A stretch of DNA of 64,000 nt, taken from positions 2,201,437 to 2,265,436 of the forward strand of contig OZ241858.1 in the NCBI GenBank assembly GCA_965203035.1, read 5' to 3'. Below, one piece after another: positions 6,751-59,517 of the stretch. Made by a program: the position numbers and the translations under genes. The notes under the pieces were generated by a model. The model saw only the letters and a list, made by a program, of their open reading frames with translations, was not told where the DNA came from and ran no database searches. The first letter of the stretch is position 1. Each line of letters starts with the position of its first letter. The DNA is from Candidatus Spongiisocius sp. (GTDB taxonomy: Bacteria > Actinomycetota > Acidimicrobiia > Spongiisociales > Spongiisociaceae).

Positions 6751-7500
6751 ATGGCCATGACGACTCAGCGCAAGCGGATCCTGATCACCGGAGCCGGCAG
6801 GTGGAACAAGGGGGAGGAGGGGGGCCTGGGCGCGGCGCTGGCGATCCGGCTCGCCGGCCAGGGACACACCGTCGTCGTCAACCACCGTTCCAGCGGCGAA
6901 TCGGCCGAGCGGCTGGTCGAGGCGATCCGGAACCGGGCGGCGAGCGCACTGGCCGTCCGGGCGGACGTCACCGATCCGGACGACGTGGAGAGGATGGGGA
7001 GGACCATCGAGCAGGAACTCGGCGGACTCGACGCGGTGATCAACAACGCCGGCCTTTTCCTGATCAAGGACTACGAACACCTGACCCCCGATGAGTGGGA
7101 GTCGCAGATAGCGTCGACCGCGACGGCCACCTACTACGTGTCCAACATCCTGCTGCCCTTGCTGCGCGAGCAGGGCGGAAGGATCATCAACATCGCCGAC
7201 GCGGGCGCCGATCGGATCACCGCCCGGCCCCGCACCCTTCCGTACCACATCGGCAAGATGGGAGTGCTGATGATCACCCGGACCATGGCCAGGGCGGAGG
7301 CCGGCCATGGTGTCACTGTCAACGCCATCCTTCCGGGGGTCCTGGAGAACTCCGAACCCCTTCCGGATCGGGCCCGCATACCGGCGGGACGCCACGGCAC
7401 CGCGGACGACGTCCTGGAAGCGGTCACGTTCCTCCTGAGCGAGAAGGCCGGCTACGTCACCGGCGCCTTCATCCAGGTCGGTGGGGGCTGGAACCTCTAG
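6751..7500 (+). CDS. SDR-family short-chain dehydrogenase/reductase
   Basis: Rossmann TGAGRWNKG...GxG motif, NNAG motif, and the YxxxK catalytic region (LPYHIGKMG). Confidence 0.75.
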   Translation: MAMTTQRKRILITGAGRWNKGEEGGLGAALAIRLAGQGHTVVVNHRSSGESAERLVEAIRNRAASALAVRADVTDPDDVERMGRTIEQELGGLDAVINNAGLFLIKDYEHLTPDEWESQIASTATATYYVSNILLPLLREQGGRIINIADAGADRITARPRTLPYHIGKMGVLMITRTMARAEAGHGVTVNAILPGVLENSEPLPDRARIPAGRHGTADDVLEAVTFLLSEKAGYVTGAFIQVGGGWNL

Positions 7501-7582: not shown

Positions 7583-8572
7583 GTGAATGCCCTTACCCAC
7601 CTCAAGGGTCCCTCCAGACCCGGTCCGGGCGACCGGAAAGTTCTGCTGGACCGGGCCGGTGAGCTGTTCGCCGGCGCCGAGATCGAGCCGACCGACATCA
7701 TCCGGATCGACGTGCCGGGCCGGGGCCAGTCGGTAGGGGGAGAGGGCCTGCTGAGGCCCGAGCTCGAACCGATCGTGCCCGCCCTGCAGTCGGGATCCCT
7801 GTTCGGCGGGCGTACGGGTGTCATGTTGATGGACGCTCAGCTACTCCAGTCCGATGAGGCTGCCGTCGTGACCGATCTACTCGCTCACCAGGCCGGTGGG
7901 ATCCCGCCGGTGGTGCTGGTCACGAGCGGAAAGCTCCCGTCCCCGCTCGCAGCCCATGTGAAGAGGAACGCCGAGGTGATAACGGTCCGCAAGCTGGCCG
8001 ACCGTGACGTCGCCCTGTGGGTGCGCGACGCCGCCCGCCGGCGCGGGTTACGCCTCGGTTCGGACGCCGCTCAGGCCCTTGTCCAGCGCTTCGGATCCGA
8101 CGTCGGGGCCATCGACCACGCTCTCGACCAACTGAGCATTTCCGGGGGGCCGGTAACCGAACAGGTCATCCTGGACCGCTTCCGCAACCGGCCGGACCAG
8201 CCCCTTTGGAAGCTGACCGACGCCCTCGGGAAGGGGGCCGCAGAGGAAGCCATCCGCCGGCTGCATGATCTCCTCACCCACGGGCACCCCCTCGTTCTTG
8301 TGGCGACCATCGAGAACGACCTCCGGAAAAGGGCGCTGGCCGCGGCCGCGCCGGATATCGCCACGTTCGCGGAGTGGATCGGCGGTAAGCCCGGCGCCTA
8401 CCCGACCCGGAAGGCATGGCAGGCAGGACGGGCCATGTCAAGGGAGGATCTGAACAGGGCCGTAGATGCTGTTCGCAGGGCCGATGCCACGCTGAAAGGT
8501 ATGCCGCCAGAGACCCACCTACCGACCTTGGAGCGCTTGGTGGCCGCCCTCTGCATCTGGTACCGCGGTTAG
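7583..8572 (+). CDS. holA: DNA polymerase III delta subunit
   Basis: Conserved position downstream of comEC. Length and overall similarity fit the HolA family. The stop codon TAG is the first unit of the heptamer array. Confidence 0.7.
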   Translation: MNALTHLKGPSRPGPGDRKVLLDRAGELFAGAEIEPTDIIRIDVPGRGQSVGGEGLLRPELEPIVPALQSGSLFGGRTGVMLMDAQLLQSDEAAVVTDLLAHQAGGIPPVVLVTSGKLPSPLAAHVKRNAEVITVRKLADRDVALWVRDAARRRGLRLGSDAAQALVQRFGSDVGAIDHALDQLSISGGPVTEQVILDRFRNRPDQPLWKLTDALGKGAAEEAIRRLHDLLTHGHPLVLVATIENDLRKRALAAAAPDIATFAEWIGGKPGAYPTRKAWQAGRAMSREDLNRAVDAVRRADATLKGMPPETHLPTLERLVAALCIWYRG

Positions 8573-8639
8573 TTGTTAGTTGTTAGTTGTTAGTTGTTAG
8601 TTGTTAGTTGTTCCGATGTAACTAACGACTACAAACTAG
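8570..8639. repeat. Heptamer hairpin element A: (TAGTTGT)x6 direct array (8570-8611), loop TCCGATGT, then three inverted degenerate copies (AACTAAC GACTACA AACTAG, 8621-8639).
   Basis: Read directly from the sequence. An AT-rich island at the convergent holA/rpsT junction. The stop codons of both genes lie inside the element. Confidence 0.9.
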
Positions 8640-8889
8640 AAACGAGACGGGCCAGGCGCGCCTTCCGGCGGTTGGCGGTGTTCTTCTTGAGCACACCTTT
8701 CGCCACAGCCTGATCGATACGCTTCTGGGCGCTTCGCAAGGCCTGCTCGGTTGCCTCACGGTCACCGCTCTCGGCGGCTTCCTCCACCTGGCGCGCCCGG
8801 GTCTTCAGCTCCGAACGGATCGACCTGTTGCGGACCCTGCTGGCAATGGCCTGCCTGTCGCGCTTTTCCTGGGACTTGGTGTGTGGCAT
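8629..8889 (-). CDS. rpsT: 30S ribosomal protein S20
   Basis: MPHTKSQEKRDRQAIASRVRNRS...KNTANRRKARLARLVSSL, about 86 aa and S20-like. The start is the internal Met at 8889; the ORF-track N-extension is rejected. Confidence 0.9.
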   Translation of the reverse strand: MPHTKSQEKRDRQAIASRVRNRSIRSELKTRARQVEEAAESGDREATEQALRSAQKRIDQAVAKGVLKKNTANRRKARLARLVSSL

Positions 8890-19224: not shown

Positions 19225-19273
19225 AGTTGCTAGTTGTTCCATTGGCTAGAAACTATTGACTATCAACTACCAA
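19225..19273. repeat. Heptamer hairpin element B: AGTTGCT AGTTGTT, loop CCATTGG, then four inverted degenerate copies (CTAGAAA CTATTGA CTATCAA CTACCAA).
   Basis: Same architecture and loop context as element A (TAGTTGTTCC...CTAGAAAC). The sufU stop codon is embedded. Confidence 0.8.
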
Positions 19274-25071: not shown

Positions 25072-25290
25072 GTGGCCACCGGGACATCCTCGCGCCTATC
25101 CAGATTCGAGAAGAGCCGCTTTATCGGCGCCAGGGACACGATGATCGTCTACGACTGCGACGATGCCGGCCAGTTCGCCCGGCTCGAGGCCCGGCTCGGG
25201 GACGACAACCTGCTGGGTCGCAACCTGATCCAGAGCTTCGCCCCCGACACGCTGGCCGAGGCCCGCAACCGGGGATTTCGTAGTTTGTAG
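25072..25290 (+). CDS. Hypothetical small protein (72 aa, GTG start). Its C-terminal RSL* is encoded by the heptamer array.
   Basis: The ORF directly follows the upstream stop. No recognisable motifs. Confidence 0.3.
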   Translation: MATGTSSRLSRFEKSRFIGARDTMIVYDCDDAGQFARLEARLGDDNLLGRNLIQSFAPDTLAEARNRGFRSL

Positions 25291-25359
25291 TTGCTGGTTT
25301 CCAGTTGGTAGTGGCTACCTGTGCCTAACAACTGACAACTCCCAACTAACAACTAAAGA
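25281..25359. repeat. Heptamer hairpin element C: left array TAGTTTG TAGTTGC TGGTTTC CAGTTGG TAGTGGC, loop TACCTGTGC, right inverted array CTAACAA CTGACAA CTCCCAA CTAACAA CTAAAGA.
   Basis: Read directly from the sequence. Stop codons of the convergent ORFs on both strands lie inside the arrays. Confidence 0.85.
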
Positions 25360-25530: not shown

Positions 25531-26934
25531 TTGGCGAACCGGAGAGTCGCATCTGTGTATGACGTAATCGTGATCGGCGGTGGCCCGGGCGGCTACGGCG
25601 CCGCCCTGTTCGCGCACAACTTCGGACTATCTGTGGCTCTGGTCGAGAAGGACGAGGTGGGCGGCACCTGCCTGCTGCGCGGATGCATACCGGCCAAGAG
25701 TTGGCTCCAATCGGCCGAGGTGTATTCGACGGTTCGCTCCGCGGGGGAGTTCGGAGTGGTGATCGGGGAGGCATCCTTCGACTGGCCGAAGGCGCTGGCG
25801 CGCAAGGACCGCATCGTGAACGGCCTGGTACGGGGCCTGTCCGGCCTGCTGAGGATGCGCAAGGTCGAGGTCGTCAAGGGCGCGGGCCGGATGGCCGGAC
25901 CGGGAAGGGTCGAGGTCGACCAGGACGGATCAACCCGTGTTCTGGAAGGCCGGAGCGTGATACTCGCCACCGGATCGGCTCCGATCGAGCTACCGGCCTT
26001 TCCCTACGACGGAGTGAGGATCGTCAGCTCCGATCATGCACTCGACTGGACCGAGCGGCCCGACCGGGTGGGAATAATCGGGGGCGGGATCGTGGGATGC
26101 GAGTTCGCCAGCCTGCTGGCCGACGTCGGGAGCCAGGTGGTGGTCTTCGAGATGCTGGACCAGATCATCCCCGGCTTCGAGCCGGCCGCCGCGCGCGAGC
26201 TCCAGAAGCAACTGAGGCGCAAGAAGGTGCGGTTCTTCCTCGAGGCGGCGGCGAGGGTCGACAACTCCGGCGACCATCCCGTTCTCCTGGGCGGGACCGG
26301 CGCCGCCGAGCAGGGAATCGAGGTTGACGCAGTGCTGGTGGCGGTGGGGCGACGTCCGGTCACCGAGAACCTGGGGCTGGATACGGTGCGGGCCGAGACC
26401 GACCGGGGCTTCGTGATTGCCGATCGGGAAACCATGCAGACCGCCGAGCCGGGTGTGTTCGCGGTCGGCGACATCGTGGCCGGCACTCCCGGTCTTGCCC
26501 ATGGCGCCTTCGCCGAGGCCATCGCCGCCGTCACCTTCATAGCCACCGGGAGACCCCGTCCGGTCGACTACCAGGCCCTCCCGAGTGTCGTCTACACCCA
26601 CCCTGAGGTGGCGTCCGTGGGACTCACCTCGGTCGATGCGGCCGCCGGGGGAATCGAGGTCGAGGAGCACGACCACTCCTTCGTAGGCGTGGGCCGGGCC
26701 CGCATCATCGGGAAGAACCAGGGATTCGTGAAGATCCTGAACGAGGTCGGTGGGCCTATCGTGGGCGCCACCGTGGTGGGACCGCAGGCCGGCGAGATGA
26801 TCCACGAGTTGATGTACGCGGTGGGCTGGGAGGCCCTTCCGGAGGAGATGGCGGCGTTCATACATGCCCATCCCACCCTGAGCGAGGCGATAGGAGAGAC
26901 CCTGCTGTCCTCGTCCGGTCTTTCCCTTCACTGA
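25531..26934 (+). CDS. lpd: Dihydrolipoyl dehydrogenase (E3)
   Basis: FAD motif (GGGPGGYGAA), redox-active disulfide (GGTCLLRGCIPAK), NAD motif. Confidence 0.9.
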   Translation: MANRRVASVYDVIVIGGGPGGYGAALFAHNFGLSVALVEKDEVGGTCLLRGCIPAKSWLQSAEVYSTVRSAGEFGVVIGEASFDWPKALARKDRIVNGLVRGLSGLLRMRKVEVVKGAGRMAGPGRVEVDQDGSTRVLEGRSVILATGSAPIELPAFPYDGVRIVSSDHALDWTERPDRVGIIGGGIVGCEFASLLADVGSQVVVFEMLDQIIPGFEPAAARELQKQLRRKKVRFFLEAAARVDNSGDHPVLLGGTGAAEQGIEVDAVLVAVGRRPVTENLGLDTVRAETDRGFVIADRETMQTAEPGVFAVGDIVAGTPGLAHGAFAEAIAAVTFIATGRPRPVDYQALPSVVYTHPEVASVGLTSVDAAAGGIEVEEHDHSFVGVGRARIIGKNQGFVKILNEVGGPIVGATVVGPQAGEMIHELMYAVGWEALPEEMAAFIHAHPTLSEAIGETLLSSSGLSLH

Positions 26935-32937: not shown

Positions 32938-33007
32938 ACCGCTCCCCGGAGGCCTGATCGACCGGCCTCGTCGCCCTTCTGGGTCAGCTAGCGAAGAGCG
33001 AGGACCC

Positions 33008-33039
33008 AAAAAAAGACCCGGCCCCAAATGGGCCGGGTG
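33008..33039 (-). terminator. Rho-independent terminator on the minus strand: 10-bp GC stem (GACCCGGCCC/GGGCCGGGTC), loop ATTTG, then a T7 tract.
   Basis: The plus strand shows AAAAAAA GACCCGGCCC caaat GGGCCGGGT. No annotated minus-strand gene lies upstream of it. Confidence 0.55.
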
Positions 33040-33510
33040 GGTAACCGCCCTCTAACGCTGGCGCGTCAGGGGCGAAGCGCTGGGATCGAATGTAACACGA
33101 GTCAAGGTCCAGAGACAAGGAGCAGGTTGAGTCACCAGTCTGGGGGACGTCGATACGGTCCTACCGTCTCCGGGAGTTGACATGAGCGGAAATCGTCTTC
33201 CGTGAGCCGGTACCACCAATGGTTGCCGACACCCTCATCCGGATCTCCCTGTAGATCCCCAGCTGTCGGGTTACGGCGCGGGTGCCGGTCGGACGGGAAC
33301 CACGCACGAAATGCTGAATCCGACACTTTCGGAACCGTTCGCACTACGTTTTCGGAATCATTTGCCACTACGTTTCCGGAGTCTGCCCTCTCCGGCAAGG
33401 CAACTGTGGACCGTGGCCGGACATGTCTGGAGGTGCGCTGTTCCGGATCTCCTGCGACCGTGCGAAGATAGGTCCGCGTTGAACGGTCCAGCCAACCCAG
33501 GTGTGGAGAT

Positions 33511-34263
33511 ATGGATCCAGCCGGATATCTGAGCGCCCTGGTCTTCGGGGCACTTTCCTTCGTGTCGCCCTGCGTCCTGCCCCTGTTGCCCGGATACCTG
33601 GGGCTCATGTCCGGCTACTCGGTGGCTGACCTGCAGCAGGGGAAGGCCTCCACCGCCCGGATGCTCCGGGTCACCGTGATGTTCGTGGTCGGGCTGACGA
33701 TCGTGTTCGTGGCCCTAGGAGCGGGGGCAACCTCGGTGGCCGGCCTGCTCGCCCGCAACAAGGGAGCCATCACCACGGTGGCGGGCTGGATGATCGCCGT
33801 GTTCGGGCTGGTCATCGTGCTGATGGCGCTCAGCACGTCGCCCCGCCTGGCCTTCCTCTACCGGGAGCGCCGGCTCCACTTGCGCCCTTCGCAGTTGGGG
33901 GGTTGGGCGCCGCTGTTGATGGGCATGGCATTCGGTTTCGGCTGGACCCCGTGCATCGGGCCGGTGCTGGCGGCCATCCTCACACAGGCCGCCACCCAGG
34001 AGACGGTCGGCCGGGGGATGCTCCTGCTGTTCGTCTTCTCGATGGGTATGGGCCTTCCGTTCATCGCCGCCGGGATCGGGGTGACCAAGCTCTACTCGGG
34101 GATCAAGCTCCTCCAGCGCCACCTGCGGACCATCAACGTCCTGTCGGGCCTCCTGATGATGGTCTTCGGCTGGCTGTTCATCACAGGCCGTATCACGGAC
34201 CTGTCGAGCCTGGTGAGTGAGTGGATGATCCGGCTCGGCCTCGAGGGTCTGGCCTCAATCTGA
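33511..34263 (+). CDS. ccdA: Cytochrome c biogenesis protein CcdA (DsbD-family thiol-disulfide transporter)
   Basis: Conserved Cys pair in TM1 (FVSPCVLPLLPGY) and the 6-TM DsbD-core topology. Confidence 0.85.
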   Translation: MDPAGYLSALVFGALSFVSPCVLPLLPGYLGLMSGYSVADLQQGKASTARMLRVTVMFVVGLTIVFVALGAGATSVAGLLARNKGAITTVAGWMIAVFGLVIVLMALSTSPRLAFLYRERRLHLRPSQLGGWAPLLMGMAFGFGWTPCIGPVLAAILTQAATQETVGRGMLLLFVFSMGMGLPFIAAGIGVTKLYSGIKLLQRHLRTINVLSGLLMMVFGWLFITGRITDLSSLVSEWMIRLGLEGLASI

Positions 34264-37539: not shown

Positions 37540-37559
37540 ACCCCCGCTACCCGATACAG

Positions 37560-37602
37560 CCCTCGTTCCCCAATCGATGGGGACGGGGGTTGTTGCTTTG
37601 TG
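37560..37602 (+). terminator. Candidate hairpin plus T-rich tract after tRNA-fMet
   Basis: CCCTCGTTCCCC aatcgat GGGGACGGGGG, followed by TTGTTGCTTTGTG. Confidence 0.3.
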
Positions 37603-37655
37603 ATCTGCCGGCTTCCCGGCGACGGTGGCGAAAGGACCAGGCATTGAGTGCTCCG

Positions 37656-45432: not shown

Positions 45433-47238
45433 TTAACCGGCGCCCCTCGCGCGCGTGCCGGGCATCCGCATGACCGACACGAAGGCCTCCGGCGGTATCT
45501 CAACCCGTCCGATCGCCTTCATGCGCCGCTTGCCCGCCTTCTGCTTCGCCAGCAGCTTGCGCTTCCGGGTGACATCTCCGCCGTAGAGCTTGGCGGTCAC
45601 GTCCTTGCGGAAGGCCTTGACCGTCTCGCGGGCGATGATCCGGCCTCCGATCGCCGCCTGGATGGGGACGTCGTACTGCTGGCGCGGGATCAGTTCCATG
45701 AGCTTCTCGGTCATCTGCCGTCCGTAGGGATAGGAAGAATCCCGGTGGACGATCGCGCTGAAGGCGTCTACCGGCTCGTGATGCAGCAGGATGTCCACCT
45801 TCACCAGATCGGCATCCTCGTAGTGTCCGGCGTCGTAGTCCAGGCTGGCATATCCCTGTGTCCGGCTCTTGAGCTGGTCGTAGAAGTCTGTTACCACCTC
45901 GGCCAGCGGCAGGTGGTAACGGAGTTCCACCCGTTCGGGAGACAGGTACTCCATGCCCTTGATGCGTCCCCGGCGGCCCTGGCAGAGATCCATCAGACGG
46001 CCGGTGTAGCGGGCCGGGCTGATGATGCTCGCCGCCAGGATCGGCTCGGCGATGGACAGCACCTCGCCGGCCGGAGGCATCTTGGCGGGGCTGTCAACGG
46101 GAACTTCCTCCCCGGCCGTCGTCCGCACCCGATACTCCACCGACGGCTTGGTGGCGATGATGTCCAGGGCGAACTCGCGCTCGAGGCGCTGGGTGATGAT
46201 CTCCATGTGCAAGAGGCCGAGGAAGCCACACCGGTAGCCGAACCCGAGTGCGGTGGAGGTCTCCGGCTCGTAGCTGAAGCTGGAGTCGTTGAGGCGTAGC
46301 CGGTCTAGGGCGTCTCGTAGTTCGGGATACTCGTCCCCGTCCAGGGGATAGAGGCCGCAGAACACCATGGGTTTGGGCTCGCGATAGCCCGGTAGGGGGG
46401 TGGAGGCTGGATGGGCGGCGTCGGTGACGGTCTCGCCGGGACGGGCCTCCGCCGTGTTCTTGACCCCGGATATGAGGTATCCCACCTCTCCGGGGCCCAG
46501 CTGCTCCACGGGAACGGCGGACGGCGTGCGCACCCCGATCTCCTGGAGGTTGTACATGGCGCCGGTCTGCATGAAACGCACCCGCGAGCCGGCGCGCAGC
46601 CTACCCCGCACGATCCGGATCGAGCTGATGACCCCCCGGTAGCTGTCGAAATGGGAATCGAACACCAGGGCCGCCAGCTCCGCATCCTCATCGCCGTCCG
46701 GCGGCGGTACGCGCCGGCAGACCGCGTCGAGGAGCCCGGCAACTCCCTCGCCGGTCTTGGCCGACACCCGCAGCACCTCTTCGGCCGCTATTCCCAGGAC
46801 CTGCTCGATCTCCTCGGCCACCCGGTCGGGATCGGCGGCGGGAAGATCGACCTTGTTGAGAACCGGTACCACGGTCAGATCGTGTTCCAGCGCCAGCGCG
46901 CAGTTGGCCAGGGTCTGCGCCTCGATGCCCTGCGAGGCGTCGACCAGCAGGATCACCCCCTCGCACGCCGCCAGGGACCGCGATACCTCGTACCCGAAGT
47001 CGACGTGGCCCGGCGTGTCGATCAGATTGATCCTCCACGGCCCGTACTCCAGGCTGACGCTCTGGAGCTTGATGGTGATACCGCGCTCCCGCTCGAGATC
47101 CATATTGTCGAGGTACTGGGCTCGCATCCGGCGTGCGTCCACAGCCCCGCACAACTCCAGGAATCGATCCGCGAGCGTCGACTTGCCGTGGTCGATATGA
47201 GCAATAATGGCTACGTTGCGTATGCGAGATTGATCCAT
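45433..47238 (-). CDS. lepA: Elongation factor 4
   Basis: GTPase motifs ([21 protein letters not shown]) and the LepA C-terminal domain. Confidence 0.95.
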
Positions 47239-47368
47239 GCCTGGGGAGGGGGGTCGAAAACCGAATCCTGGGAGGCTCGCCGGTCGGGCAAACCACGGTC
47301 CTAGACGCAGGCTAGCCAGCGAACCGCACGTTCCGGCTTCGAGTGACCCCCGGGTAAGATCATCTCCA

Positions 47369-47452
47369 GCCGGGATGGCGGAATTGGTAGACGCGCCGGA
47401 CTCAAAATCCGGTGCCCCTTGGGGCGTATGGGTTCGAGTCCCATTCCCGGTA
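47369..47452 (+). tRNA. tRNA-Leu (anticodon CAA), type II with long variable arm
   Basis: GCCGGGATGGCGGAATTGGTAGACGCGCCGGACTCAAAATCCGG...GGGTTCGAGTCCCATTCCCGGTA. Confidence 0.85.
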
Positions 47453-47456
47453 CGGG

Positions 47457-47610
47457 CAGTGGCCAGTGGCCGGTTGCCAGTGGCCAGAGGCGACTTGGTC
47501 TAATCAATTCCCTTGTGCCCTTTCCTCTGTTCGATGGCATGTGTCATTCCCTTCCTGGGTTACAACATCACTGACCACTGACCACTGACCACTGACCACT
47601 GACCACTGCC
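47457..47610. repeat. Heptamer element D: left array (CAGTGGC)x5 with two degenerate units (47457-47491), a 77-nt AT-richer spacer, and right inverted array (CACTGAC)x5 plus CACTGCC (47569-47610). It ends 16 nt before the polA ATG.
   Basis: Read directly from the sequence. The reverse complement of the right array is (CAGTGGT)n, so the two arrays are mutually inverted. Confidence 0.9.
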
Positions 47611-47626
47611 ACGCTACGATCATCGC

Positions 47627-50284
<2,658 letters not shown>

Positions 50285-53860: not shown

Positions 53861-55879
53861 GTGGCGGACTTCGCAGTTGTCTCGGACTTCAACCCGGCCG
53901 GTGATCAACCGGCCGCCATCGACGCGCTGGTCGAGGGTGTGGAACGCGGCGATGCGTTCCAGACCCTGCTGGGCATCACCGGCTCCGGGAAGTCCGCCAC
54001 CATCGCCTGGACGATCGAGCGAGCCCAACGGCCTGCCCTGGTGATCGCTCCGAACAAGGCCCTCGCCGCCCAGCTGGCCTCCGAGTTCCGCCAGTTCTTC
54101 CCCGGCAATCGGGTGGAGTACTTCGTCTCCTACTACGACTACTACCAACCGGAGGCCTACATCCCCCAGACCGATACCTACATCGAGAAGGACGCCACCA
54201 TCAACGACGAGATCGACCGGCTCCGTCATGCTGCCACCTCGTCGCTGCTGTTCCGGGACGATGTGGTGATAGTGGCCAGCGTTTCCTGCATCTACGGGCT
54301 GGGCAGTCCGGATGAGTACGCCGGGCAGGTCCTCCGGCTGATCCGGGGCGTCGAATTCCCGCTCCACCAGGCCATCCGCCGGCTGGTGGACATCCAGTAC
54401 CAGCGCAACGAGGTCAACCTGGTGCGGGGCCGGTTCCGCGTCAGGGGCGACACCCTCGAAGTCTTCCCCGCCTACGAGGAGACCATCGCCCGGGTGGAGT
54501 ACTTCGGAGATGAGGTGGAGAGGATCGTCCGCATCAACCCCGTCACCGGCGAGATCATCGACGAGATGAAGGAACTGTGGGTGTACCCGGCCACCCACTA
54601 TGCCGCCTCGGAGGAGCGCATGGAGCGGGCGATGGTGGGTATCCAGGCCGAGCTACGAGAGCGCCTGGCGGAACTGGAGCAGCAGGGAAAGCTGCTCGAG
54701 GCGCAACGGCTCCGCATGCGTACCACCTACGACCTGGAGATGATCCGCGAGGTGGGGTTCTGCTCCGGGATCGAGAACTACAGCCGCCACATCGACGGTA
54801 GGGCGCCCGGGGAGGCCCCCTACACGCTGCTCGACTACTTCCCGGATGACTTCCTGACCATCATCGACGAGAGCCATGTGGCCATCCCGCAGCTCCACGG
54901 CCAGTACGAGGGGGATCGAAGCCGCAAGGACGTGCTCGTGGAGCACGGTTTCCGCCTGCCTTCGGCACTCGACAACCGGCCGCTGCGCTTCGATGAGTGG
55001 CTGGAGAAGACCGGCCAGGTGATCTTCATGTCGGCCACGCCCAGCCCCTTCGAGCGCCGGCATTCCGACAACATCGTCGAGCAGATAGTGCGGCCCACCG
55101 GGCTGGTCGATCCGGAGGTGGTGGTCAGGCCCGCAAAGGGTCAGATAGACGATCTCATCGGGGAGATCCGGGACCAGGCTGTGCTGGGCAACCGGGTGCT
55201 GGTCACCACGCTGACCAAGAAGATGTCCGAGGATCTCACCGACTACCTGCTGGAAATGGGGATCCGGGCTCGCTACCTCCATTCGGAGATCGACACCCTG
55301 GAACGCGTTCAGTTGCTGCGCGAACTGCGGTTGGGGGAGTACGACGTGCTGGTAGGCATCAACCTGCTCCGGGAGGGACTGGACCTGCCCGAGGTGTCGT
55401 TGGTGGCGATCCTGGATGCCGACAAGGAAGGCTTCCTCCGCTCCGAGACCAGCCTGATCCAGATCATCGGCCGGGCGGCTCGGAACGTCTCGGGCCGGGT
55501 GATCATGTACGCGGACGACGTGACCGACTCCATGAGGGCCGCTATCGGGGAGACCAACCGGCGCCGCTACCTGCAGGTGCGCTACAACGAGGAGCACGGC
55601 ATCGACCCCCAGACCATCCGCAAGAAGGTGTCCGACATCCTCGAGCTGGTGTCATCGAGCGGGCCATCGTCGCGCCGCCGGGACAGGAGCCTGGGCTCGA
55701 TGGAGGTGAGCTCCCCGGTGGAGCTGGCCGGCGAGGACCTGGGCCGCATGATCCAGAGCCTTGAGGACGAGATGCGGGAAGCTGCCCGGGAACTCCGCTT
55801 CGAGTACGCCGCCCGCCTCCGGGACGAGGTGGCCGAACTCAAACGAGAGATGAAGGAACTCAGCGAGGTAACGAGGTAG
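53861..55879 (+). CDS. uvrB: Excinuclease ABC subunit B
   Basis: Walker A (GITGSGKS), helicase motifs, and a C-terminal UVR domain. Confidence 0.95.
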
Positions 55880-58841: not shown

Positions 58842-58869
58842 AACTTAGTCTATGAACTTAGTCTATAGT
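58842..58869 (+). promoter_or_regulatory. Two 12-bp direct repeats (AACTTAGTCTAT, spacer of 1 nt) overlapping a TATAGT -10-like hexamer upstream of the TA operon. Candidate autoregulatory operator.
   Basis: Read directly from the sequence. A GAGGAG SD lies 8 nt before the ATG at 58895. Confidence 0.4.
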
Positions 58870-58894: not shown

Positions 58895-59131
58895 ATGGCC
58901 GTGACCGTGAACGTACATCAGGCCAAGACGCACCTGTCGAGGTTGCTGGATCGCGCCCACGCCGGAGAGGAGATCATCCTCGCCAAGGCGGGCAAGCCCT
59001 ATGCCGTGCTCGGACCCCTTCCTCCATCCGATGTGGGCCGCCGCCCCGGCCGGCTGGCCGATCAGACTGTCGGCCCGGAGATACTCCTGCCCCTTCCGTC
59101 CGCCGAACTCGATGCCTGGGAAGGGAGATGA
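58895..59131 (+). CDS. Type II antitoxin (VapB/Phd-YefM-like small DNA-binding protein)
   Basis: MAVTVNVHQAKTHLSRLLDRAHAGEEIILAKAGKPYAVL. Stop overlaps the toxin start (ATGA). Confidence 0.7.
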   Translation: MAVTVNVHQAKTHLSRLLDRAHAGEEIILAKAGKPYAVLGPLPPSDVGRRPGRLADQTVGPEILLPLPSAELDAWEGR

Positions 59132-59517
59132 TGCGGCTATTGCTAGACACGCATACCTTGTTGTGGTGGTGGACCAACAACCCCAACCTCTCGGCCCTCG
59201 CCCGGAATTCCATTGCTGACGGGACATCCGAGGTATTCGTCAGCGCGGCGAGCGCTTGGGAAATCGCTACTTTAAGACGGCTAGGACGCCTGGATCGCGC
59301 TCCCGACGCCACCGGCCGCTTCCATGAGTTGGTTGCGGCAGATGAGTTCCGTCACCTGGCAATCACCTACAGACACTGTCTCCGTGCCGGCGCCTATACG
59401 GCAGAGCATCGCGATCCCTTCGACCGGATGCTGGCCGCCCAGAGCGAGATGGAGTCACTCACCCTGGTGACCAAGGATCTCGCGTTCGGGCAATTCGAAA
59501 CCACGGTTATCTGGTAA
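59128..59517 (+). CDS. vapC: PIN-domain ribonuclease toxin (VapC family)
   Basis: N-terminal LLDTHTLLWWW with the acidic PIN residues, and the size (129 aa). Paired with the upstream antitoxin. Confidence 0.75.
   Translation: MMRLLLDTHTLLWWWTNNPNLSALARNSIADGTSEVFVSAASAWEIATLRRLGRLDRAPDATGRFHELVAADEFRHLAITYRHCLRAGAYTAEHRDPFDRMLAAQSEMESLTLVTKDLAFGQFETTVIW

Follow-up and report, generated by a model that had tools for sequence, protein, structure and literature searches.

Paired inverted heptanucleotide arrays between tRNA-Leu and a probably leaderless polA in a sponge-associated member of the Acidimicrobiia

Here we describe element D, a pair of inverted heptanucleotide repeat arrays lying between a tRNA-Leu gene and polA, the gene for DNA polymerase I, in Candidatus Spongiisocius sp. 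(contig OZ241858.1 of assembly GCA_965203035.1). The whole stretch that was analysed, hereafter the window, is 64,000 nucleotides (nt) long. As we read the sequence, element D is a pair of hypermutable heptanucleotide microsatellites that jointly form a long imperfect palindrome. The most plausible role for it is the one first proposed, that of a tRNA terminator combined with an insulating stem. In the form that we favour, RNA reading through from the tRNA-Leu promoter would carry a hairpin resembling a repetitive extragenic palindrome (REP), which would delimit the tRNA-Leu unit ahead of a leaderless polA promoter; we regard the chances for and against this proposal as about equal.

The layout of element D was read directly from the sequence, with concordant results from ARAGORN and Tandem Repeats Finder (TRF). 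All of its parts are given on the forward (+) strand. The tRNA-Leu gene (anticodon CAA, 47369-47453) was called by ARAGORN and matches Rfam RF00005 with 60.6 bits; its CCA end is not encoded. Eight nt before the mature 5′ end stands TAAGAT (47355-47360), whose role is likely that of the -10 box of the tRNA-Leu promoter. The left, G-rich arm, (CAGTGGC)x5 at 47457-47491, begins 3 nt past the tRNA gene and is reported by TRF with period 7, 5.0 copies, 82% matches and a score of 49. Three of its units are perfect, the other two being CGGTTGC and CAGAGGC, and it counts 15 G to 10 C; it would form the 3′ trailer of the tRNA-Leu transcript. A T/C-rich spacer of 77 nt (47492-47568) makes up the loop, and the right, C-rich arm follows at 47569-47612 (TRF period 7, unit CACTGAC, 6.4 copies, 97% matches, score 81). 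This arm has five perfect CACTGAC units, then a CACTGCC that ends at 47610, and counts 20 C to 6 G. Sixteen nt separate its last unit from the ATG of polA, an open reading frame (ORF) of 885 amino acids (47627-50284) whose orthologues align from residue 1; an identical PolA product carries the Pfam domains 5_3_exonuc_N, 5_3_exonuc and DNA_pol_A. Both arrays are intergenic, since tRNA-Leu ends at 47453 and polA starts at 47627.

The description in the original prediction, of five CAGTGGC-type units after tRNA-Leu and six CACTGAC-type units ending 16 nt before polA, mutually inverted around a spacer of lower GC content, was borne out by the reading, by ARAGORN and by TRF. The two 36-nt arms (47455-47490 and 47575-47610) are 81% complementary, and the spacer has 47% GC against 66.8% for the window. 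It had also been said that the right array places TGA in every frame, and the five TGA triplets at 47572, 47579, 47586, 47593 and 47600 do cover all three. These arrays are not random. CACTGACCACTGAC, a pattern of two units, occurs six times in the window with up to two mismatches, every time within element D; 0.6 matches are expected for the window, and 0 of 100 shuffles reach six. Each array holds at least three contiguous head-to-tail 7-nt copies beyond chance, the mark of heptanucleotide long simple sequence repeats (LSSRs) and short tandemly repeated repetitive (STRR) sequences.

Comparisons with relatives show that slippage in steps of 7 nt builds the arrays, changes their size and makes their units uniform. 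The relatives, designated L001, L002 and so on, come from a polA-based scan that kept one genome per species, and are sponge-associated Acidimicrobiia related to Ca. Spongiisociaceae; their PolA is identical to that of the window at 95% in L001, 86% in L002, 82% in L003 and about 66% in a further group. In L159, from another assembly, polA is identical at 2658 of 2658 nt and the intergenic region is identical save for one CACTGAC unit fewer. Element A, one of three other inverted heptamer elements in the window (A, B and C, located below), has four units in L160 against six in the window, with holA identical at 988 of 990 nt; these copy-number differences are taken from assemblies and not from reads. 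Such arrays also break short-read assemblies, one contig (L161) ending inside the element A array. Four units of the right arm are CACCGAC in L001 but CACTGAC in the window; one substitution shared by four units means unit turnover and not independent point mutation.

The tRNA-Leu gene, both arrays and the paired base of the stem are kept in L001 and L002, and the TAAGAT before the tRNA is invariant in the window, L159, L001 and L002, with TAAGAT or TAATAT in L003 and L006. L003 has another unit family on both sides (AGTCGTT; AACTACG or GACTAAG). Compared across these relatives, both arms appear to change in a correlated manner. The tRNA is missing from L004 and L023, yet C-rich heptamers (CACCAGC, CCACTGA) stand directly before polA there, and seven relatives (L005-L009, L018 and L036) have no array at polA. 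No other stretch of the locus is as poorly conserved as the spacer: between the window and L001, identity is 87% at the four-fold degenerate sites of polA and 122 of 130 nt in the lepA-tRNA intergenic region, and in the spacer it is 65%, against 56% for shuffles, so that the spacer is diverging faster than the four-fold sites. Its fold is not significant (z -0.09 and -0.41), with L002 alone reaching -3.0, and a search of the 64 kb and of about 1 Mb of loci from relatives and metagenomes found the spacer in the window and in L159, its twin contig, and nowhere else. A structured RNA or small gene in the spacer was accordingly rejected, there being no fold signal, conservation or second copy.

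The polA gene is most likely leaderless, with a transcription start site (TSS) at about 47627, because a conserved -10 box lies 6 nt before the ATG and there is no Shine-Dalgarno (SD) motif. The box, TACGAT (47615-47620, +), is of the form TAnnnT and predicts a TSS at or next to A47627. Of 25 orthologous Acidimicrobiia loci, 24 have a TAnnnT hexamer whose end lies 6-9 nt ahead of the polA start, and none has an SD motif; GCTACGAT or ACTACGAT stands just ahead of the start codon in the compared polA loci, and array-less relatives retain the same -10/ATG module. TAnnnT near a start that has no SD is the standard geometry of actinobacterial leaderless promoters, known from Mycobacterium and Streptomyces transcriptomics. 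Within the window this geometry is found at 4 of 48 predicted starts against 0.29% of internal in-frame ATG/GTG codons, about a 29-fold difference, the four being polA, uvrB at 53861 and the genes at 6751 and 9065. The last three have TAnnnT 8 nt before the start and no SD, and the gene at 6751 shares the GCTACGAT motif of polA.

If the TSS is at about 47627, the right array is therefore no polA leader, and is most likely promoter-upstream DNA, at about -16 to -58 of polA. The original prediction had put the polA promoter in the spacer and had considered a regulatory structure in the polA leader, naming a TSS downstream of the right array as the result that would count against it. The comparative evidence places the TSS there, and on that evidence the leader model fails: the array and the ATG are separated by the conserved -10 box, no SD is present, and the spacer is unconserved and has neither a consensus promoter nor a fold. 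A consensus sigma-70 promoter scan likewise found none at the window locus, spacer included, or in L001. One -35-like hexamer, CTGACC (47592-47597, +; 4/6 against TTGACA), does lie in the right array 17 bp upstream of TACGAT and would be a weak candidate. It reads CCGACC in L001 and is lost in L004 and L023, and the match is probably incidental. We rejected a -35 box supplied by the array because CTGACC is kept neither in the relatives nor in arrays with other units, and it survives only as part of a weak rival discussed below.

The arms pair from a perfect stem base, GGCAGTGG (47455-47462, +) with its 8-bp partner CCACTGCC at 47603-47610, whose G-C and A-U pairs are invariant in the window, L001 and L002 (alignment columns 19-25 and 167-173). 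Every internal unit brings in a single C.A mismatch when the + strand folds; on the - strand the same position forms a G.U pair. On the + strand the long stem is predicted at -66.4 kcal/mol (z -3.1), and the left array could also form a local hairpin (-24.4 kcal/mol, z -1.9). The long stem is retained in the window, L001 and L002, and folding gave no significant long stem in L003, L004 or L023. Columns 35 and 157 pair as A-U in the window, G.U in L002 and G-C in L001, and several stem pairs are broken in L001; covariation, a single A-U / G.U / G-C series over only three lineages, is suggestive but not decisive. A consensus terminator scan found no terminator-like site in 47100-47800, and element D has no short-loop G+C-rich hairpin followed by a U-tract, the arrangement of an intrinsic terminator. 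The tRNA-Met gene in the window has a canonical terminator at about 37556-37605, and an ordinary hairpin directly follows tRNA-Leu in L003 and L006. An Rfam scan of 47000-47900 at E<=1 matched the tRNA alone. The predicted folds thus describe an arm pairing that is real but loosely maintained, and an element that is no canonical terminator. A DNA cruciform was ruled out by reasoning, as its extrusion from the duplex would be strongly disfavoured with a loop as long as 77-84 nt.

Arrays of this kind are abundant outside the window. (CACTGAC)3 occurs in at least 120 metagenome contigs, whose GC runs from 0.33 to 0.73 among the matches listed, and it is from this range and from the diverse sample sources that we infer the breadth of the class. 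Among the same listed matches, 28 loci have a complementary GTCAGTG-type array at most 300 nt upstream and 0 have one downstream, and the loops of paired arrays measure 11-199 nt, a range that takes in the 77-nt spacer of element D. When inverted period-7 pairs were counted over the window and L003-L158, the 5′ arm had G>C and the 3′ arm C>G in 46 cases and the reverse in 0, with 6 ties; outside the CACTGAC unit family this G-first polarity stood at 18:0. Ordinary perfect hairpins in the same DNA show no G-first bias (10:15 and 19:25). For gene context, gene calls filtered by GC content at third codon positions (GC3) and checked against Pfam replaced ORF statistics, which shadow ORFs in high-GC contigs had made noisy. 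Of the pairs whose flanking genes could both be called, all 12 have co-directional neighbours and take up nearly the whole gap between them. Counted over all arrays, a C-rich sense strand prevails ahead of starts (46:11) and a G-rich one past stops (63:28). Of ten ORFs whose starts lie 4-27 nt past a CACTGAC array, nine are genuine genes, as full-length Pfam matches show, among them ribosomal proteins S19, L4 and L17, and Hsp33. Examples of pairs are found at L082:410-1053, L108:958-1027, L062:7718-7793 and L151:2509-2597, and in L082 they stand at consecutive gene junctions of one operon. In paired arrays the C-rich arm borders the start of the downstream gene, and the layout of element D is exactly that of the class, with the G arm after a gene end, then the loop, and the C arm ahead of a gene start.

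The junction of coaE and uvrB in three Acidimicrobiia offers a second case of arrays beside a promoter (L004:10942-11078, L023:10940-11005 and L031:10868-10935). In L004 it reads (TAGTTGC)2, a perfect (ATTCACC)x15, TACTCT, 6 nt and the uvrB ATG; in L023 and L031 the arrays reach into coaE, at the 3′ end of its coding sequence. In each of the three, TAnnnT and then 6-7 nt lead to the uvrB start, and uvrB would therefore be leaderless too. C-rich heptamer arrays abut the -10 box of polA in six lineages and that of uvrB in three.

How element D might work follows from which RNA could carry it. Only read-through RNA from the tRNA-Leu promoter would contain both arms, which could zip into a stem of about 36 bp. 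As a REP-like hairpin this stem would mark the end of the tRNA-Leu unit, and it could serve as a 3′-end structure or as one for RNase III-type processing. By masking the sequence ahead of the SD-less polA AUG, it could also leave the leaderless transcript as the only one to be translated efficiently. Because the array is self-similar, gain or loss of a unit leaves the sequence beside the -10 box unchanged, which would explain why slippage is tolerated at a housekeeping promoter.

Several observations weigh against this hairpin reading. The stem is predicted to be more stable on the - strand (47450-47630; -84.6 kcal/mol, z -6.3), because the C.A mismatches there turn into G.U pairs, although a transcript of that strand is not expected in this region. 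With a C.A mismatch in each unit, the + strand does not have an optimal stem. Neither the local nor the long hairpin is followed by a U-tract, and mycobacterial RNA polymerase is reported to require one. The loop between the arms is long, at 77-84 nt, and in L002 the spacer contains one weak terminator-like hairpin plus a T-run, the only such site in the scans of that relative, which would halt transcripts before the right arm. L004 and L023 keep the C-rich array before polA with no significant stem, and the arms of element A are unequal (6 against about 3 units), so that pairing is not tightly maintained. Each functional step of the account is one that we infer, and all of the evidence is also compatible with arrays that have no function.

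That last view is the leading alternative, and we give it a minority but still substantial chance. Functionless slippage microsatellites would expand in unconstrained DNA until they reached the tRNA or the -10 box; their orientation would stem from purifying selection against G-rich arms with GTG, ATG or TTG next to a start, and their complementarity would be upheld by template switching between the arms of the quasi-palindrome. The 7-nt indels between otherwise identical contigs, the unequal arms of element A, the C.A mismatches left unrepaired and the arrays running into coding 3′ ends in L023 and L031 all speak for neutrality, as do units that vary by species at one site and the relatives that have no array at all. 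Nearly all pairs also adjoin a downstream start, and a start-proximity filter alone could yield the polarity. That filter, however, does not predict that elements A, B and C are also G-first with no adjoining gene start, and neutral filler must further account for a polarity of 46:0 with no exception, for the favouring of G-rich arrays after stop codons (63:28), and for arms that stay complementary and change correlatedly across lineages 70-87% identical at four-fold sites. A bolder position, that inverted heptamer-array pairs are a distinct, so far unrecognised and cross-phylum class of directional intergenic element whose polarity reflects a mechanism rather than a filter, we consider unlikely. 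Were it true, element D would be the actinobacterial version of the class, set against a leaderless promoter. Its polarity might then arise from a co-transcriptionally folding hairpin that at once hides the C-rich, Rho-attracting arm, from a ribosome or polymerase that unzips the G arm on finishing the upstream gene and so frees a G-poor landing pad for SD-less initiation, or from a hairpin- and transcription-dependent engine of repeat length such as that at hmw.

A DNA-level element has a slim chance in our estimate. Here the C-rich array would act on the polA promoter, with copy number tuning expression, either by offering a -35-like TGAC every 7 bp, or as a tandem platform for a nucleoid or regulatory protein, or as a single strand bound by a protein with an oligonucleotide-binding (OB) fold such as a cold-shock protein or S1, whose site is about 7 nt. 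CTGACC is exactly 17 bp from TACGAT, C-rich arrays do adjoin the -10 boxes of polA (six lineages) and uvrB (three), promoter-proximal heptamers have precedents in the TTTTGAT repeats of ctxAB (bioRxiv 2021.05.14.444153) and at recF and recO of Nostoc (bioRxiv 2022.06.06.494920), and cold-shock proteins and S1 have been proposed as binders of TAACTGA repeats (PMC4679880). Yet the -35-like match is lost in L001 (CCGACC) and missing from the ATTCACC, CACCAGC and AACTACG arrays found in the equivalent position, and the consensus promoter scan was empty. The units vary across loci and species, so no single sequence-specific binder fits, and copy number varies between otherwise identical strains at a housekeeping gene. 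Operators of the Streptomyces antibiotic regulatory protein (SARP) type, also built on heptamers, were ruled out, as their units recur every 11 bp and not every 7.

We find it very improbable that a promoter in the spacer makes the right array a transcribed regulatory leader, acting through its structure or as a stop-codon trap. The array does end 16 nt before the ATG with TGA in all frames, such arrays lie in 5′ untranslated regions (UTRs) or between cistrons in other lineages, 0-27 nt before starts, and the hmw heptamer repeat is transcribed (PMC12721329). Against this stand the conserved TAnnnT placed 6-9 nt ahead of the start at 24 of the 25 loci, the lack of any SD, the unconserved, unstructured spacer in which no consensus promoter was found, and the relatives that have no array or spacer and keep the same -10/ATG module. 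A stop-codon trap as the general purpose of the arrays was rejected as a rule, many units (CACCGAC, CACCAGC, ATTCACC and AACTACG) carrying no stop codon. Hardly credible, finally, is a mobile element of the REP type or of the MITE type (small transposable elements bounded by inverted repeats), with the arrays as terminal inverted repeats: a length of about 155 bp, inverted termini and a spacer replaced between relatives recall one, but the spacer is unique both in the 64 kb and in about 1 Mb of loci from relatives and metagenomes, no target-site duplication flanks the arrays, each locus has its own unit, and the arrays change by single-unit steps.

The other heptamer elements of the window resemble element D in part. 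Element A (8568-8641; (GTTAGTT)x6.4 against AACTAAC-like units) lies between the holA-like and rpsT stop codons: it starts within the holA-like stop codon, and its right units end at that of rpsT. In L160, a G-to-A change improves its right arm. Element B (19225-19271; AGTTGYT against AACTAYY) is weak, with a fold that is not significant (z -1.0); it reaches into a minus-strand gene at its 3′ end and lies about 216 nt beyond the closest gene end on the plus strand. Element C (25279-25356; GTAGTTT-type against CTAACAA-type units) has a significant + strand fold (z -3.4), and both A and C lie between convergent gene ends. It had been claimed that element D shares the architecture of A to C. They are indeed three more inverted heptamer elements with other units, but they are compact hairpins and D has its 77-nt spacer. 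The second result that had been named as counting against the original prediction, an absence of such arrays elsewhere, went the other way: the rest of the window lacks this unit, but arrays of the kind abound elsewhere. A look-up of the product of 25531-26934 gave no result.

Further repeats were seen in passing. A 24-nt tandem repeat (TTTCGGAACCATTCGCCACTACGT, 2.3 copies) at 33327-33380 lies inside a 574-nt intergenic region (32938-33511) that also holds an A-run and then a hairpin near 33010-33045. At 58842-58866 a perfect 13-nt direct repeat (AACTTAGTCTATG x2) stands directly upstream of two small ORFs (about 58895-59130 and 59130-59516) that by eye look like an antitoxin and PIN-toxin pair, for which the AACTTAGTCTATG repeat might be an operator. 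In L020 (1400-1620), an Acidimicrobiaceae metagenome-assembled genome (MAG), a tRNA on the opposite strand and polA are separated by a long inverted repeat, CCTTAGGATTGAGCGGCCAGATATGGCC ... GGCCAGATATGGCCGCTCAATCCTAAGG; arrays of (ACCCCGT)3 and (GTACCCC)5 stand immediately past the stop codons of polA and of the gene after it.

Reports of heptanucleotide tandem repeats in bacterial genomes go back to 1990, and hmw in H. influenzae is the one case whose mechanism has been worked out experimentally. The present locus shows heptamer arrays in uncultured sponge-associated Acidimicrobiia, and shows that they can sit flush with the -10 box of the apparently leaderless polA and uvrB while varying in length between otherwise identical strains. 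Paired arrays have a strict G-first polarity that ordinary hairpins lack. If this polarity is functional, it gives a simple, testable handle on the role of the repeats; if not, the locus is a clean example of slippage remodelling promoter-upstream DNA harmlessly. The arrays are also ready for use as strain markers.

Among known systems, intrinsic terminators share with element D a G+C-rich hairpin directly after a tRNA gene; element D differs in having no U-tract, a loop of 77-84 nt and a negative consensus scan, and ordinary hairpins lack the G-first bias. The REP sequences and bacterial interspersed mosaic elements (BIMEs) of enterobacteria are imperfect palindromes at 3′ ends or between co-directional cistrons, whose transcribed hairpins affect the stability of mRNA 3′ ends. 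They evolve quickly and are repeated across the genome, as single palindromes of 20-40 nt with a conserved GTAG head, mobilised by REP-associated tyrosine transposases (RAYTs). In element D, by contrast, the arms are tandem arrays with locus-specific units, and no link to a transposase is evident. Closer in kind are the cyanobacterial STRR heptamers, reportedly described by Mazel and colleagues in 1990; the STRR2 unit is TTGGTCA, one base from GTGGTCA, the reverse complement of the element D unit.

Element D is a known general kind of heptamer array, in a lineage and an arrangement for which we found no description. Within the searchable literature, heptamer LSSRs are not described for Acidimicrobiia or sponge symbionts, and no description of inverted pairing with a fixed G-first polarity was found there, its coverage being incomplete. 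According to the accounts of Mrazek 2007 given in PMC4679880 and PMC4692102, many high-GC genomes have heptanucleotide arrays as their most frequent type of long microsatellite, and LSSRs, for which slippage is the proposed origin, are over-represented in high-GC non-pathogen genomes including Actinobacteria. As far as those accounts go, the 7-nt LSSRs share with element D their contiguous head-to-tail heptamers and mostly intergenic position.

The TAACTGA repeats of Beggiatoaceae, Cyanobacteria and Bacteroidetes, which lie 1-43 nt before starts and show 7-nt indels between strains (MacGregor 2015, PMC4679880), share several features with element D: the ACTGA core, indels in 7-nt steps, a frequent absence of SD motifs, and a C/A-rich strand that runs forward before starts and in reverse after stops, as in the element D class. 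The right array likewise presents its sense CACTGAC strand within about 40 nt before a start, as the class does at 46:11. TAACTGA repeats are almost only direct, however (169 direct sets against 1 indirect), and they lie in 5′ UTRs (PMC4679880), whereas element D stands upstream of the -10 box of a probably leaderless gene with an inverted partner, and its right array would not be transcribed in the 5′ UTR of the downstream gene. In Nostoc, heptamer arrays are found at the promoters or start codons of recF and recO (bioRxiv 2022.06.06.494920). At H. influenzae hmw, the (ATCTTTC)n array is transcribed and forms a hairpin by pairing with a G-rich arm; the hairpin is cut by RNase III, and a change in repeat number requires transcription as well as the hairpin (PMC12721329). 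In hmw1A as in element D, a heptamer simple sequence repeat (SSR) of variable copy number is an arm of a long hairpin upstream of a gene; an hmw-type duplex of both arms is also predicted for element D, where co-transcription would depend on read-through from tRNA-Leu. The two differ in that the hmw1A SSR lies in the gene's own 5′ UTR, only one of its arms is an SSR, and its C/T-rich arm comes 5′, the opposite polarity; and the gene that it precedes is a phase-variable adhesin, whereas the one next to element D is a housekeeping gene and most likely leaderless.

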